DNA of 64,000 nucleotides, taken from NCBI GenBank assembly GCA_963664405.1, contig OY761158.1, positions 3,808,001 to 3,872,000 on the forward strand, written 5' to 3'. Positions 2,714-11,529 of this stretch are shown here, piece after piece. The DNA comes from Thermoanaerobaculia bacterium (lineage in GTDB: Bacteria > Acidobacteriota > Thermoanaerobaculia > Multivoradales > Multivoraceae). Position numbers and translations under genes: made by a program. The stretch's first letter is position 1. The number at the start of each line of letters is the position of its first letter. The notes below the pieces were generated by a model. The model was given only the letters and a program-made list of their open reading frames with translations, was not told the DNA's origin and ran no database searches.

Positions 2714-3111
2714 GGCAAGACCCCTCCCACGATGACCCCCTGTCCCTACTAGAGCCTCGAAGGGTCCGATAACTGACAAGATCTCCGAGAAGACAGTGTC
2801 TTTGAAGCCGAGAACCCCTGATGAGGAGCGCGGGAAGTAGGGGAGAAAGGGCGGCTGCAAGGTCGACGAGGCGGCCCCGCTTCTTGTCCACCGTTTTGCC
2901 GATCAGCTGCTCTTCGGCCCTCGGGGCTTTCGCCGAGCTCACCACTCTCGCAGTCCGGCTCCAGCATTGTTTTGCCTGAGCCTCGCGACGTCGGGATCCC
3001 TGGGAGCGGAGGATCGCCGTTTCGTGCGAGACGATCCCCAAAGTGGTGCTGGACTTCGGCACCACTTCCGAAAGGCTTCTGAGCAACGGTGTCTCTACGC
3101 TTCGCCGTGCC

Positions 3112-3130
3112 GTGGCACAATTCTGGCACA
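3112..3130. repeat. Short direct repeat TGGCACA-N4-TGGCACA, putative integrase arm-type site
   Basis: gtggcacaattctggcaca lies ~120 bp before the tRNA-Ser fragment. TAAGCTGTTGAAT (~3188) and AATCAGTCACTTGA (3321) flank the fragment. Confidence 0.4.
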
Positions 3131-3248
3131 CTAACGCCCGAGAATCGCCAACAGAGCGCGACAAAGCTCAACGAGACTGCCGACCCTAAGCTGTTGAATC
3201 CATTTCGGTTATCGGTTGTACCCTACTGTGGGTGATTGGGCTCGGCCC

Positions 3249-7169: not shown

Positions 7170-8621
7170 CTTGGGTTCAAGGAGTCGTCGCAGCGTTGCC
7201 TTGGTGAGCAGAGTGTACAAGCTCATCGAAGACTTCGGCAGGGGTTCTCCAGCCGAGGGTCTTGCGGGGTCGGCCGTTGAGTGCGAGCGCGACCGCGGCG
7301 AGGTCGTCGCAGGAGTATCTGACAAGGTCGGTGCCCTTCGGGAAGTACTGGCGTAGTAGTCCGTTGGTGTTCTCGTTGGTGCCCCGCTGCCAGGGGCTGT
7401 GCGGGTCGCAGAAGTAGATCGCGAGGCCGGTATCGACGCGGAGTTGAGCGTGTTGAGCCATCTCGGCGCCCTGGTCCCAGGTCAAGGACCGGCGGAGCTG
7501 CTCGGGCAGCGTGGTGATTGACACCGCGATCGCGTCACGGACGGCTTCGGCGCCGTGCCCGGCGAGGGCCGGCCCGTTCTTCACCCTCGATTCGGTCCCG
7601 TGCCCTTCCATGCGGGGCAGGTGCAGCAGCATCGTGAACCGCGTAGTGCGTTCGACGAGGGTCCCGATCGCTGAGCTCTCGAGCCCGACGATCAGGTCGC
7701 CTTCCCAGTGACCCGGCACGGCCCTGTCGCCGGCTTCGGCGGGGCGTTCGCTGATCATGATCTCCGGAGTTACAAATTTCTTGCCTCTCCCCCGGGTTCG
7801 CGCATGCGGCACTCGTAGCGCTCGCCCGGTTCGCAGGCACGCGACGAGCTCGCGTTTGAGGGCTCCTCGACCTTGGATGTAGAGCGCTTGGTAGATCGCC
7901 TCGTGAGAGATCCGCATCGACTCATTATGGGGGAAATCAATCCGAAGCCGGTTCGAGATCTGCTCCGGACTCCAGGATTTCGCCCAACGCCGATCCTGGC
8001 GACGGCCGTGCCGACGGCCGATCCAACGCACATCCGGACCCGGCACCAGCTCCCCGTCAGGCCTTGCGATCACGCCGGCGAGGCGGTTCTGCACGTACTC
8101 ACGCAAGGCATCGTTCGCGGCAAGCTTGGAGACCTTCGGACGGCTGGCGCGCCGCTCCGCGTGCCACTGCGCAGTCGTGGCCCGATAAGTTACGGCACGG
8201 CTGCGAGTCGCCGCGTTGCGGCGCAGCTCCCGCGAAATCGTCGACGGTGAACGACCCAGGCGGCGAGCGATCTCACGTACCCCAACATGCTGAGCGTGAA
8301 GGATGGCGATCTCTTCACGCTCGGCGAACGACAGATAACGCCCCGACACCGGAGCCAACGAGATAGGTCGCATTCCACCAGCTTGCCTGAACCATCTCGA
8401 CCCGACAGCCGGCGACACCCCAGCCTCTGTTGCGGCGTCCTCGCTGGACGCCCCACGAGCGATCGTCTCCCAGAACCGGATCCGGTCCTCGCGCCGCGCT
8501 GTCGAGGGCCGGCCAGGTGACCGCATCTGGCCACGCATCGCTCGAATCGCACCCTGACACTTGCCAACTCCCATCGAAACACCTCCATCACGAGATGTTG
8601 CGACGACCAGTTGAATCCGCC
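7170..8621 (-). mobile_element. IS30-family insertion sequence
   Basis: IRs cttgggttcaaggagtcgtcgcagc / ggcggattcaactggtcgtcgcaac; single intact transposase. Confidence 0.9.
7177..8574 (-). CDS. IS30-family transposase
   Basis: RSPSTISRELRRN, WSPEQIS, ISHEAIYQ, PGHWEGDL, TWDQGAEM, PWQRGTNENTNGLLRQYFPKG. The true start is probably slightly downstream (MRGQMRSPG). Confidence 0.95.
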   Translation of the reverse strand: MGVGKCQGAIRAMRGQMRSPGRPSTARREDRIRFWETIARGASSEDAATEAGVSPAVGSRWFRQAGGMRPISLAPVSGRYLSFAEREEIAILHAQHVGVREIARRLGRSPSTISRELRRNAATRSRAVTYRATTAQWHAERRASRPKVSKLAANDALREYVQNRLAGVIARPDGELVPGPDVRWIGRRHGRRQDRRWAKSWSPEQISNRLRIDFPHNESMRISHEAIYQALYIQGRGALKRELVACLRTGRALRVPHARTRGRGKKFVTPEIMISERPAEAGDRAVPGHWEGDLIVGLESSAIGTLVERTTRFTMLLHLPRMEGHGTESRVKNGPALAGHGAEAVRDAIAVSITTLPEQLRRSLTWDQGAEMAQHAQLRVDTGLAIYFCDPHSPWQRGTNENTNGLLRQYFPKGTDLVRYSCDDLAAVALALNGRPRKTLGWRTPAEVFDELVHSAHQGNAATTP

Positions 8622-8821
8622 CAATACACTTGCGAGGACTACCGGGATCGTCTGGCCGAGCTCGGCATGACCGCGAGCATGAGCCGCAAAGGCAACTGCT
8701 TTGACAACGCGGTCGTCGAAAGCTTCTTCGATTCGCTCAAGACCGAGATCGACCAGCAGGTGTTCGAAAGTCGCGAGCAAGCGCGCCAAAGGGTGTTTGA
8801 CTACATCGAGATTTTCTACAA
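8622..8821 (+). pseudogene. IS3-A orfB, part 2
   Basis: QYTCEDYRDRL...SMSRKGNCFDNAVVESFFDSLKTE...DYIEIFY resumes exactly where part 1 stopped. Confidence 0.9.
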
Positions 8822-8846
8822 GTGGGATTCACAATGCTTCACCTCA

Positions 8847-10937
8847 CTATGTGCTTGATATGTGGAGAGTTAGCTGATCGACATCACGTCCTGCGGGGTC
8901 AGTTCGGCTTCCGAGGCCCTCTCGAAACCGCCGCTGGAGGGTCGGATTGTCCAGGTCGCTGCAGTTAAAGACCCATGGACCGTCCTTGAGCGGGTGTTTC
9001 GCCGGTACATCGCCCCGCTCGGCAGCCCGTCGTAGCGTCTTCGCGGCGACACCGAGATGGGCTGCCGCGGCGGTCAGATTCATCCATCCTTCGGCCTGGC
9101 GTATCGCGGACGAGTACACCGGTATGCCACGGTTGTTGCGCAAGGAGGTCACGGCCAGGGCAGACCATCGATTCCCGCGTGCGGTGAGAAGGCCGTTGCG
9201 GGTGAGGTAGCCGGCGATCAAACGGTCCTTGCAGATGCGAGCCAGCTCGCGGATCGCATCGACCACGTCGGGACTCGTGTGCGATGCGCTCTGGCCCCTG
9301 CGGCGCCGTGGGATACGCAGCTCGCTGTGCAGCCCTCCCTTCCAATGAATGGCGAGGGTGACCTCACTCTGCACAGCGTCGATGTCGACGACAATCTCTT
9401 CGATCAAAGCTCGGAGGACGCGCTTCTTGAGACGCGGGTCCGTTTCCGGCGCATTCCACATCCGGTCGAGGTCGAGCTCGAGATCTGCCAAATCGAGGGG
9501 GTCCGGTGCCCTCGATTTCTCGCCCGAGGGTCCCTGCTCGAGCTTTCGCTCCAGCTCGCGTACCTTCTGCAAGGCCTCGTCCCAGCGCCGCTCCAACTCG
9601 CCCGCAACGAGACGATTATCGGGATCCATCGCGTCGTAGCGACGACGGGCCAGCTCCGCCGCGTAGTGGGCTGCTTCCAACTCCATGGACAGAGCTTGGA
9701 TCCGCTCCTGGCGTCGAAGTGCCTCTTGCGAAACCGCGAGCCTCGCAGCCTCGACCGCGCAGGGTCGCACCACCTTGAGAATCTCTTCCGCAACGGCTTG
9801 GTCCACCGACAGCCCGCCAAAGGAGATGCATTTCGGAGCCATCTGGTCGAGTCGGGCGCGATGGCACAGGTACCGAGGGACCGCGGCATTCTTACCCGAG
9901 TAACCAACCATCAACTTGCGACCGCAACGACCGCAACGCAAGAGTCCTGCAAGCAATGCAGCTCCCCGTTTCGGCGCCCCACGACGGCGAGCTGACTGGA
10001 ATTGAGCGACATTGTCATCGAGCATCTGTTGGACCTTCTGAAACCGATCCCACCCAATGTAGCCCTCGTGATGATCGGGGATCAACACCGTCCACTCGTC
10101 AAGGGGCTTGCGCACGACCCTTTTGCGCAGGGATCCATCGACGAGCTCGGTCTTGGACGTCGTACGGCCGTAGGCGTAGGCACCGGCGTAGGTCGGCTCT
10201 TTCAGGATGCCGATAACGGCGTGATAGGCCGGCCGCTTCCACCAGGTCTCCCAGCCCGCGACGCCGCGCCGTTTCGCGGGTAGATCCACACCGTTTTCGA
10301 GAAACCACAGCCCGGCCTGCCGAGCGGTCCCCAACTCGAAGAACTTCGTGAAGACTAGCTCGATGGCCTTCTGCACGCGAAGGTCAGGGTCCTTCTCCAG
10401 GCGTTGATCCGCGGTCTTCACGAAACCCACTGGGGCCTCGATCACCAACTCGCCGCGCTTGGCCTTGGCCCACCGAGCCTCCACCGAGCGTTGGCGCAGA
10501 AGATCCAGCTCGTACTCGCTCATCGTGCCTTTCAGACCCAGCAGCAATCGATCGTTCGCTCGACGAGGATCGTAGATCGTGTCGTGATCGATGAGCAACG
10601 TTTCGACCATGGCGCACATCTCGATCAACTGATGCCAGTCGCGGTTATTGCGTGCGAAACGGGACACCTCGATCGCCGCTACGGCACCGATCCGCCCTAG
10701 ACAAACCTCGGCCACCAAGCGCTGAAACCCGGTGCGACCGTGTGTCGATGTCGCGGAAAGCCCTTGATCCTCATCAATGACCTCGGTCTCTTGCCAGCCC
10801 AGGTCCCGTACGCGCTGCTCCATCGAGTACTGCAGACGCCGGCTCTCGGTGTTGTGCACTAGCTGGTGGTGCGACGACTGGCGCACATAGATCAGCGCCC
10901 GACGCTCGAGATGTCGAACCGTGAGCTTCTCACTCAT
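8847..10937 (-). CDS. Large serine recombinase (resolvase + recombinase + Zn ribbon + coiled coil + C-terminal HTH)
   Basis: ALIYVRQSS catalytic Ser, VIDEDQGLS, EVSRFARN, LLRCGRCGRK, HEGYI; AAGGAGGGG RBS. Confidence 0.95.
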   Translation of the reverse strand: MSEKLTVRHLERRALIYVRQSSHHQLVHNTESRRLQYSMEQRVRDLGWQETEVIDEDQGLSATSTHGRTGFQRLVAEVCLGRIGAVAAIEVSRFARNNRDWHQLIEMCAMVETLLIDHDTIYDPRRANDRLLLGLKGTMSEYELDLLRQRSVEARWAKAKRGELVIEAPVGFVKTADQRLEKDPDLRVQKAIELVFTKFFELGTARQAGLWFLENGVDLPAKRRGVAGWETWWKRPAYHAVIGILKEPTYAGAYAYGRTTSKTELVDGSLRKRVVRKPLDEWTVLIPDHHEGYIGWDRFQKVQQMLDDNVAQFQSARRRGAPKRGAALLAGLLRCGRCGRKLMVGYSGKNAAVPRYLCHRARLDQMAPKCISFGGLSVDQAVAEEILKVVRPCAVEAARLAVSQEALRRQERIQALSMELEAAHYAAELARRRYDAMDPDNRLVAGELERRWDEALQKVRELERKLEQGPSGEKSRAPDPLDLADLELDLDRMWNAPETDPRLKKRVLRALIEEIVVDIDAVQSEVTLAIHWKGGLHSELRIPRRRRGQSASHTSPDVVDAIRELARICKDRLIAGYLTRNGLLTARGNRWSALAVTSLRNNRGIPVYSSAIRQAEGWMNLTAAAAHLGVAAKTLRRAAERGDVPAKHPLKDGPWVFNCSDLDNPTLQRRFREGLGSRTDPAGRDVDQLTLHISST

Positions 10938-11118
10938 GCTTCCCCTCCTTTGCGAGGCTCGGCGATGACGGTGGGCTCTGCTCTGTCAGGATCTGCGCCA
11001 GCAGAGAGATCACCGCTTCGCGAGTCGTCGCGGGCAGCTCTCGCCAGCTCGGCCGATCGGTCTCGGTCGCGAAGAGCTCGGCTTGGTAGGTAACCCGTTG
11101 GGCGCGTCGATGTCGCAT
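10930..11118 (-). CDS. Small hypothetical protein upstream of the recombinase
   Basis: 62 aa with Q.ELF...P.W.ELP...R..V..LLA.IL, a pattern I recall upstream of such recombinases; overlaps the 157-aa ORF in another frame. Confidence 0.5.
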   Translation of the reverse strand: MRHRRAQRVTYQAELFATETDRPSWRELPATTREAVISLLAQILTEQSPPSSPSLAKEGKHE

Positions 11119-11407
11119 CGTTTCCCTCCGTAGTCGGTGGAAGACGATTCTCTATCGCGCCCGGACCCTCCTGCTGACGGGTGTCTCTGAGTAATTGCCA
11201 ACAATCGACAAGCGCTTCCCAACGTACGTTGGGCGAAGTCGTTGCCTGCATCCGAGAGCACAGCTCCCGATCAAACATCCATTTGGGAATCTCGAGCTTC
11301 GCGCGCGTCTCGTCATCGTTGACTTGACATCGATAGACCCCGCCGCCCTTCTTCTTGCCGTGGACAACGACTTCCTGCCCGTATTGCGGGTGCCAGCGGT
11401 ACTGCAC
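10934..11407 (-). CDS. Y4bD/Y4pK-like accessory protein; its N-terminus appears to be supplied only after excision
   Basis: YRWHP.YG..V and EIPKWMFD...C motifs; the stop overlaps the recombinase start (ATGA). Confidence 0.6.
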   Translation of the reverse strand: MQYRWHPQYGQEVVVHGKKKGGGVYRCQVNDDETRAKLEIPKWMFDRELCSRMQATTSPNVRWEALVDCWQLLRDTRQQEGPGAIENRLPPTTEGNDATSTRPTGYLPSRALRDRDRSAELARAARDDSRSGDLSAGADPDRAEPTVIAEPRKGGEA

Positions 11408-11448
11408 CCGACGAATCTCGGTCCTGTGATCACTGTGATCGGGACTTG

Positions 11449-11529
11449 TACAATCGGTCCCGGCGCCATTCGACGTTGGGATATGTCAGCCCCGCGACCT
11501 TCGAGCAGCAGCTCCAGGAGGCCGCGTGA
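11449..11529 (+). pseudogene. IS3-A orfB, part 3
   Basis: YNRSRRHSTLGYVSPATFEQQLQEAA-stop. Confidence 0.9.

Follow-up and report, generated by a model that had tools for sequence, protein, structure and literature searches.

The locus described here raises the question of how an open reading frame (ORF) that borders a recombinase gene, and that has neither a start codon nor a ribosome-binding site (RBS) of its own upstream of an internal GTG codon, could be translated at full length. It lies in a stretch of 64,000 nucleotides (nt), hereafter the window, from the Acidobacteriota genome of a Thermoanaerobaculia bacterium (GCA_963664405.1, contig OY761158.1, positions 3,808,001 to 3,872,000 of the forward strand). 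Within the window, a 2,632-base-pair (bp) element occupies positions 8817-11450 on the minus strand, with the gene order orfA, orfB and recombinase. The best explanation for the evidence as a whole, and one considered probable, is that orfA is split by attP, the attachment site of the element, so that the full gene exists only when the two ends of the element are joined. The window element itself is best explained as a minimal insertion sequence (IS)-like element that is moved by a large serine recombinase and carries attP inside orfA.

Predicted assembly of orfA across the joined ends

On the minus strand, the stop codon of the recombinase gene (TAG, 8849-8847) is followed after a single base by a Shine-Dalgarno (SD)-like run, GAGGTG (8845-8840), and after a further 7 nt by a GTG codon (8832-8830), from which 11 nt (8829-8819) lead to the dinucleotide TA at 8818-8817. 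At the high-coordinate end of the element, the first full codon of the orfA frame is 11449-11447, and the frame runs from there into GTG 11407-11405. Reading from GTG 8832 through one copy of TA adds 19 codons ahead of GTG 11407 with the frame kept and no stop encountered, for a total of 176 amino acids (aa). An earlier note on this DNA, made from the sequence alone, had claimed this junction and its fusion to a 157-aa ORF; both were reproduced, and its coordinates for the RBS, the GTG, the TA cores and the stops all hold on re-reading of the sequence.

In the integrated state, the same frame closes at a TGA in the flank, and no ATG, GTG or TTG lies in the orfA frame between TGA 11488-11486 and 11407, as the note had also stated. 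Its further observation that the stop of the 157-aa ORF overlaps the start of the recombinase gene is likewise confirmed, the TGA at 10936-10934 sharing bases with the ATG at 10937-10935. The crossover core falls within codons 5-6 of the joined orfA, and the two states of the DNA encode different products. What integration removes is the N-terminus of orfA together with its initiation signals, not its C-terminus, and at the sequence level the expression signal (SD plus start codon) is present only in the joined form. It is strongly inferred that full-length OrfA would be translated from the joined form only.

Conservation of the layout in genome and metagenome relatives

The recombinase alignment was scanned against one genome per species; at least 600 genome stretches match the pattern, 595 of these 600 encode a relative, and the 80 loci listed come from many phyla, with recombinases 39-55% identical over the best segment. 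The expected geometry (start codon, 11 nt, 2-nt core, 11 nt, mirrored motif) was derived by hand from three elements with known ends. The right core was fixed at start + 14 and the left core was chosen by palindrome score alone, with the reading frame ignored; the right-end starts of L035, L092 and L067 were corrected by hand. A free two-sided palindrome search for ends was dropped after it failed on the three elements with known ends. The 66 scored genome loci consist of 63 of the 80 listed, the window element, L009 and L025.

Relatives with recombinases sharing 35-55% identity with that of the window show the same spacing of start codon, 11 nt and core. A GCAnnATG-like motif with a start codon was found within -12 to +40 of the recombinase stop in 71 of 78 readable genome loci (ATG in 63, GTG in 7 and TTG in 1); the commonest offset from stop to start is +17, and in 4 of the 71 the recombinase stop overlaps the start codon (offset -1). 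A profile built with the OrfA of the window placed the OrfA domain ahead of the recombinase in 68 of 80 loci. Of the 66 top frame-blind calls, 48 keep the frame, compared with 10 and 8 in the other two frames. Equal cores at both ends provide a check that is independent of the reading frame: the same core dinucleotide occurs at both ends in 36 of the 66 scored loci, and 35 of these 36 are in frame and stop-free. No ATG, GTG or TTG occurs inside the element upstream of the domain in 25 of the 35 in-frame loci; the other ten have internal start candidates, located 0-12 nt before the domain in nine of them, with L027 also having candidates 60 and 69 nt before it.

The same script, with no manual fixes, was applied to a second set of loci from an independent scan of metagenome contigs. 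Again at least 600 stretches match, 592 of these 600 encode a relative, and 80 loci were listed. The right-end motif with its start codon is present in 66 of 70 readable loci, and the OrfA domain, detected with the same profile, lies upstream of the recombinase in 72 of 80. Of 56 scored loci, 44 are in frame (8 and 4 in the other frames). Matching cores at the two ends were found in 35, every one of them in frame and stop-free; 24 of these lack an internal start, and 11 contain a GTG, TTG or ATG. When both sets are pooled, 70 of 71 same-core relatives are in frame and stop-free, and 49 of the 70 have no other orfA start in the element. The check proposed in the earlier note, namely to rejoin the ends of homologues and look for conservation of RBS, start codon and frame, was thus positive in genomes (35/36) and metagenomes (35/35), and its core reading, in which full OrfA would come only from the circle, is supported by the conserved frame and start layout of the relatives.

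The spacing between core and domain is informative as well. The distances observed are 40, 43, 46, 49, 52, 55 and 76 nt, all of them 1 mod 3, so that spacer lengths change by multiples of three only; they also vary within recombinase clusters, the 35 elements forming 20 clusters at 60% recombinase identity. An SD match of at least 5 nt lies upstream of the right-end start in 21/35 genome and 20/35 metagenome loci, compared with 6/35 and 0/35 at the mirrored place on the left arm. Taken together, the 1-mod-3 distances, the lack of stops, the general lack of an alternative start and the one-sided SD runs argue for selection on the joined frame, not for inheritance alone.

Three copies in one Myxococcota metagenome-assembled genome (L049, L050 and L078) are uninformative about ends because their flanks are shared. 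In L028, L031, L034, L054, L068, L071 and L076, the left arm keeps the usual in-frame distance of 43 nt and the two cores are unlike (GT versus GG in L034), which could reflect insertion at mismatched-core sites or later mutation.

OrfA and OrfB proteins

DUF5372 (PF17342) is matched at E ≤0.01 by 18 of the 35 aligned OrfA members, and the alignment contains invariant H and P residues. The OrfA of the window gave no DUF5372 match at E up to 1 and is tied to the family through its relatives only. An AlphaFold model of OrfA built on the 35-row alignment has a mean predicted local distance difference test (pLDDT) score of 82.7 and shows four strands followed by helices. Strand 1 comprises residues 11-14 and precedes the codon of GTG 11407 (residue 15), so a product begun at 11407 would lack this strand. 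A Foldseek comparison of the model with the PDB found nothing at E ≤0.001, with weak matches to SH3-like/KOW-like barrels at E 0.13-0.4, and a word-indexed search with the OrfA of the window among proteins of 47-151 aa returned no candidate.

It might be argued that orfA is not a working gene, being instead a decaying remnant or merely DNA bound by the recombinase. This view could appeal to the failure of Pfam to recognize the OrfA of the window and to the absence of an orfA coding sequence (CDS) from the one annotated record inspected, the gene table of which is incomplete. It is nevertheless very improbable, given the recurrence of the domain in 68/80 genome and 72/80 metagenome loci, the DUF5372 matches of 18 of 35 members, the invariant residues and the confidently predicted fold, and given that the domain extends about 250 nt past any plausible attP arm.

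The 157-aa ORF of the earlier note requires some revision. Its frame is indeed open from 11407 to 10934, whereas the folded part of OrfA spans only about 100 aa and the remainder of the frame overlaps a gene that the note had missed, orfB, which lies in another frame between orfA and the recombinase gene. Since orfA stops early, at about 110-140 aa, in several relatives, the 157-aa frame beyond the OrfA domain is probably open by chance.

OrfB is conserved as a protein in 29 of 80 genome loci according to jackhmmer, and is a candidate for a small directionality or excision factor. Members of this family have 60-75 aa and a W..LP...LLA.L pattern, are always encoded directly before the recombinase gene and often end in HE. 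A complex prediction for the recombinase and OrfB with OrfA as partner scored 0.58 (best of three controls, 0.00), a mark that 58 of 80 solved complexes attained, as did 2 of 110 mismatched pairs, although scores at 0.60 or under accounted for only 7 of the 80 solved complexes and for both passing mismatches. The runs agree in at least 64% of contacts, with a partner pLDDT of at least 63, and the score fell to 0.00 when the recombinase was replaced and OrfB kept.

Start codon or half-site

Several observations weigh against a split orfA, and some of them bear on an improbable alternative in which the layout is a by-product of attP symmetry. According to this alternative, GCAnnATG and its purines constitute a binding site, orfA starts internally (at GTG 11407 in the window), and the frame across the joint is inherited and functionless. 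In 33 of 35 loci, ATG or GTG also occupies the mirrored position of the other arm; the start codon is thus part of a symmetric half-site that the recombinase alone could conserve, and its conservation alone proves nothing. Pairing right ends with left ends of other loci (1,304 combinations) still gave an in-frame top call in 49%, a consequence of the family-wide conservation of the left-arm motif; the same core occurs in 12% of these mismatched pairs versus 55% of real genome pairs. The loci are homologous and are therefore not independent trials. The score used to pick starts rewarded purine runs, by which the SD contrast is slightly inflated.

The same alternative gains from the starts found inside some elements. 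An in-frame GTG, TTG or ATG precedes the domain in 10/35 genome and 11/35 metagenome relatives, mostly within 12 nt of it, and the window copy has its internal GTG at 11407, from which some translation in the integrated state may take place. Top frame-blind calls are out of frame in 18/66 genome and 12/56 metagenome loci, mostly those with low scores or unlike cores; the single exception among the same-core calls, L032, loses the frame and contains a stop, and was probably miscalled in view of its odd distance of 120 nt. The complex prediction for recombinase and OrfA is weak. The free circle also escaped detection: no go-back joint of the kind expected from a circle occurs in contigs of runs X1, X3, X4 and X10, contigs being prone to drop rare forms; the predicted attP 26-mers of 35 elements were found for none (0/35) in the sequences searched; and no contig among those searched had matching, circular ends.

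Symmetry alone does not readily account for the remaining features. Between the element end and the domain, 25/35 and 24/35 relatives offer no ATG, GTG or TTG at which orfA could start internally; every change in spacer length is a multiple of three, within recombinase clusters too; and none of the 70 joined stretches contains a stop. The SD-like runs are one-sided (21 and 20 of 35 versus 6 and 0 of 35), the recombinase stop overlaps the start codon in four loci, and predicted strand 1 lies upstream of the GTG 11407 codon. One sequence seems to be used for two purposes, as start codon and as half-site.

Promoter searches were also made. No sigma-70-like site was found in the integrated element. 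Of 35 elements, a single one, other than that of the window, has such a site across the joined ends, and there it lies on the opposite strand; the consensus used may not fit these phyla in either case.

Element ends and insertion site

The insertion lies in an IS3-type transposase gene on the plus strand, which is split into two halves (rve_2/rve_3 matches) and the frame of which continues from 8816 to 11451 after in-silico excision. The joined flanks align unbroken to 14 paralogous IS copies in the same genome, with 68% identity over 280 nt across the joint. When contigs of public runs were placed at 90% likeness, those of X3 and X10 showed a joint from 8816 to 11449 in which 2,632 bases are skipped and five letters (TACAA) fit either side. 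The depth of this joint is 28.8 in X3, where just 23 letters lie on the shorter side, and 2.7 in X10. These empty-site contigs most likely represent uninterrupted IS copies and not excision products, the X3 joint being read in this way because the filled form there has a depth of 4.9. Together with the 14 IS copies, they define an exact empty site in which nothing of the target is duplicated except the shared overlap.

The core TA was placed from the symmetry of attP and the geometry of the family. The joined inner arms read ACTTG-TA-CAAGT, a perfect 12-nt palindrome around TA, and the window element has a palindrome score of 13 of 22, compared with 9 for the runner-up. The recombinase matches three Pfam families above cut-off, namely Resolvase (PF00239, E 6.5e-20), Recombinase (PF07508, E 1.5e-16) and Zn_ribbon_recom (PF13408, E 6e-07), and its C-terminus has a weaker HTH_17 match. 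The coordinates of the features are collected in Table 1.

Table 1. Features of the element and its flanks (window coordinates)
Feature	Position	Strand	Remarks
IS3-type transposase gene, upstream part (low-coordinate flank)	8430..8816	+	ORF 8430..8858 matches rve_2 and rve_3
Low-coordinate junction TACAA, common to 11449-11453	8817..8821	.	Inferred crossover core TA 8817-8818
Inner attP arm, 11 nt	8819..8829	-	Codes codons 2-4 and two bases of codon 5 of circle-form orfA
GTG, predicted start codon of circle-form orfA, also within attP half-site motif	8830..8832	-	
Shine-Dalgarno-like GAGGTG	8840..8845	-	7 nt before GTG, 1 nt past recombinase stop
Large serine recombinase, 696 aa	8847..10937	-	Pfam domain matches
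orfB, 62 aa	10930..11118	-	Own GGAGGG-N5-ATG; stop 5 nt inside recombinase gene
orfA body	10934..11448	-	Conserved DUF5372-like domain ~11407-11150; frame open to 10934
attP arm at orfA end, mirror of arm 8819-8840	11427..11448	-	Palindrome when ends joined
High-coordinate junction TACAA, common to 8817-8821	11449..11453	.	Core TA 11449-11450
IS3-type transposase gene, downstream part	11451..11529	+	Ends at TGA 11527-11529
In-frame TGA closing orfA frame in flank (integrated state)	11486..11488	-	

Further traces of mobile DNA were noted around the element and elsewhere. An IS30-type transposase of 465 aa (HTH_38, weak rve) is nested in the same IS3 copy at window 7177-8574 on the minus strand, and a 205-nt stretch beside it recurs with 98.6-100% identity at 14 further positions of the genome. 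A frameshifted remnant at C1 2054649-2054985 (L002) matches the orfA end of the window element at 90% identity and shares its IS3 flank, and another at C1 4512216-4512991 (L010) retains an orfA-like stretch and the first 108 recombinase codons at 45% identity. In another family of the same phylum, L021 (G164:C5:1327500-1335500) contains the window element, IS3 flank included, at 98% identity. This copy has a frameshifted recombinase gene and a 3' end cut by another IS, and was ruled out as an independent insertion. The 98% identical copy and flank suggest that a composite of the IS3 copy and the element has moved between lineages.

Related elements and their targets

The host genome (6.78 Mb in one contig) carries five identical 3,355-bp copies of a relative in different sites, and for this reason recent movement or activity of that relative is suggested. 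One copy lies at C1 2342094-2345448 (L009:1001-4355), and the others end or start at C1 3326271, 3062968, 2711059 and 6344034; all five are inside other repeated genes, and comparison of the copies yields the ends and a TT core. The recombinase is 35-37% identical to that of the window and is accompanied by a DUF5372 gene, an HTH_32/HTH_29 protein and a 107-aa ORF. The first ORF matches the Pfam family DUF5372 with E 1.6e-20 and has no in-frame start before the conserved motif. At the other end of this relative, a GGAGGAGG run and a GTG overlap the end of the recombinase gene, the core follows 11 bases past the GTG, and the frame continues into the DUF5372 ORF.

In-silico removal of the elements restores open frames and known motifs across the joint, including Walker A in L025, L084 and L030, a tyrosine-recombinase motif in L040, an IS91 transposase motif in L079 and a reverse-transcriptase motif in six loci. 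These restored target motifs serve as an independent check of the called ends. Pfam searches with the flank halves identified IstB_IS21 (L025 and L084), Phage_integrase (L040), Zn_Tnp_IS91 and Y2_Tnp (L079), RVT_1 and GIIM (L092, L094 and L099) and DDE_Tnp_1_4 (L038); the flank halves of L030 and L056 matched no family. The target gene runs antisense to the element in all 13 loci in which a target motif or family was identified.

The arrangement of the targets bears on another way in which orfA might be translated while integrated, that is, by ribosomes or transcripts arriving from the target gene as a fusion or by read-through. In many loci the flank does extend the open orfA frame by 45-300 nt, and an in-frame start is present in a few flanks. 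In the window, though, the frame closes at TGA 11488-11486 without a start, and the flank likewise offers no in-frame start in 25 of the 35 in-frame genome loci. All 13 identified targets are opposite in strand to the element; moreover, flanks vary by site and thus hold no conserved signal. Such read-through is considered highly unlikely.

In these members of the family (L025, L030, L038, L040, L079, L084, L092-L100 and the window element), the targets are conserved motifs in genes of other mobile elements. The motifs belong to the IstB Walker A and the group II intron reverse transcriptase, as well as to tyrosine recombinase, IS91, DDE and IS3 transposase genes. In L184, the left end of a second, different DUF5372 element (2800-3238) begins about 270 nt past the right end of the first, and both elements lie within the same group II intron reverse-transcriptase gene. 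A match to orfA downstream of the recombinase in this locus had been a candidate circle junction and was rejected, as it represents this second left end.

The family also occurs on plasmids. At E 1e-50 or better, 462 plasmid records contain a relative of the recombinase, mostly from Rhizobium, Sinorhizobium and Bradyrhizobium, and one Microvirga plasmid has nine places that match. Cultured carriers of relatives include Acidiphilium cryptum JF-5, Rhizobium leguminosarum bv. trifolii CC278f and Novosphingobium guangzhouense SA925. In L186 (NC_009468.1 108094-113160, plasmid pACRY02 of Acidiphilium cryptum JF-5), a relative with a 53% identical recombinase carries an orfA whose frame can be followed back through a TA core to an ATG at the opposite end of the element. 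The gene table of this record lists orfB (as a hypothetical protein) and the recombinase with no orfA CDS; being incomplete, the table gives only a hint.

Proposed mechanism

In the chromosome, the two parts of orfA lie 2.6 kb apart and point away from each other, an arrangement that leaves orfA without a ribosome-binding site and, in most relatives, without a start codon too. The recombinase end holds the SD and the start codon together with 4 2/3 codons, and the remainder begins right after the TA core at the other end; only a head-to-tail junction unites them. Joining of the ends, in a circle or at any head-to-tail junction, would form a complete orfA 14 nt past the recombinase stop. The genes of the circle would then constitute a closed loop of recombinase, orfA, orfB and recombinase, in which a transcript through the recombinase gene would cross attP and carry the complete orfA. 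Given the overlapping stop and start codons, translation of orfA may raise the output of orfB and recombinase as ribosomes are passed on, a rise for which the junction promoters of IS circles would provide a parallel. Re-integration would cut orfA inside codon 5 and end its synthesis.

What OrfA does is a matter of more tentative proposals. It is possible, at somewhat less than even chances, that OrfA acts as a cofactor of the circle phase that binds the recombinase and favors or licenses re-integration. A protein made only after excision cannot be a classical excision factor, for which orfB is the better candidate. A wider proposal, speculative and on balance unlikely, treats the split orfA as a sensor of topology that sets the direction of the recombinase: OrfB, present in both states, would promote excision, and OrfA, made only once attP exists, would bind the enzyme, switch it to integration and be lost as integration cuts its gene. 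The elements would then represent an undescribed IS-like class of serine transposons homing into motifs of mobile-element genes.

Comparison with known systems

Lyras and Rood reportedly found in 2000 that the circular intermediate of Tn4451/Tn4453 of Clostridium, which are moved by the recombinase TnpX, forms a promoter for tnpX. Like the element of the window, these transposons depend on a large serine recombinase, and the joining of their ends creates an expression signal that is absent when they are integrated. The two systems differ in what is joined: promoter halves that turn on the recombinase gene in Tn4451/Tn4453, and here an SD, a start codon and first codons that are joined to a separate accessory gene. 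Junction promoters are also a feature of IS911, IS2, IS30 and IS21 circles. For integrative and conjugative elements (ICEs), the promoters Pcirc of ICEclc and P3'end of ICEKp1 are presented as junction promoters of the circular form (PMC13023037). In all of these cases, as in the window, the circle places a signal from one end beside a gene at the other, and integration undoes the arrangement. Unlike the split orfA, the IS-circle and ICE signals are transcriptional and stand before an intact gene, whereas here the crossover falls inside the coding sequence and it is translation initiation that would be assembled.

A recombination site within a coding sequence has a precedent in mycobacteriophage BPs, in which attP lies inside the repressor gene 33 and immunity depends on integration, as described in a report on this phage (PMC4557955). 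According to the same report, integration alters the C-terminus, the prophage makes a shorter, stable and active repressor, and both forms are translated (PMC4557955). BPs and the present element thus share an attP within an ORF of their own, with the result that the encoded protein differs between the integrated and the free form and that regulation follows from the state of the DNA. The difference is that integration here removes the N-terminus, the SD and the start codon, and little or no OrfA is therefore expected from the integrated form. Another relevant case is skin in sigK, a developmental excision that restores a host gene (PMC5025042). There too, excision by a large serine recombinase assembles an ORF; the assembled gene is that of the host, restored at attB, in contrast to the element's own gene at attP. 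Both assemblies may occur at once in the present family, with orfA formed at attP and the target transposase gene restored. In the literature searched, no paper was found with DUF5372 as a word, and no description of the split-orfA layout was found in that literature, supplementary files being outside the search.

Implications

State-dependent expression is known to involve promoters and, in a few phages, the C-termini of proteins. In the family described here, the recombination site instead separates the translation start of the element's own gene from the body of that gene, and as a result the physical state of the DNA would itself be the on/off switch, with no regulator needed. The family is abundant, with at least 600 matched stretches per scan and 462 plasmid records. 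An orfA without a start codon is expected to be missed by gene callers. The layout constitutes a ready-made design for reporters of recombinase state, and the family offers many natural attP/attB pairs, several of which fall within protein-coding motifs that are highly conserved. Should OrfA act on the recombinase, the split gene would represent a new way of giving direction to serine recombination, with a bearing on the choice that transposon-like serine recombinases make between excision and insertion.

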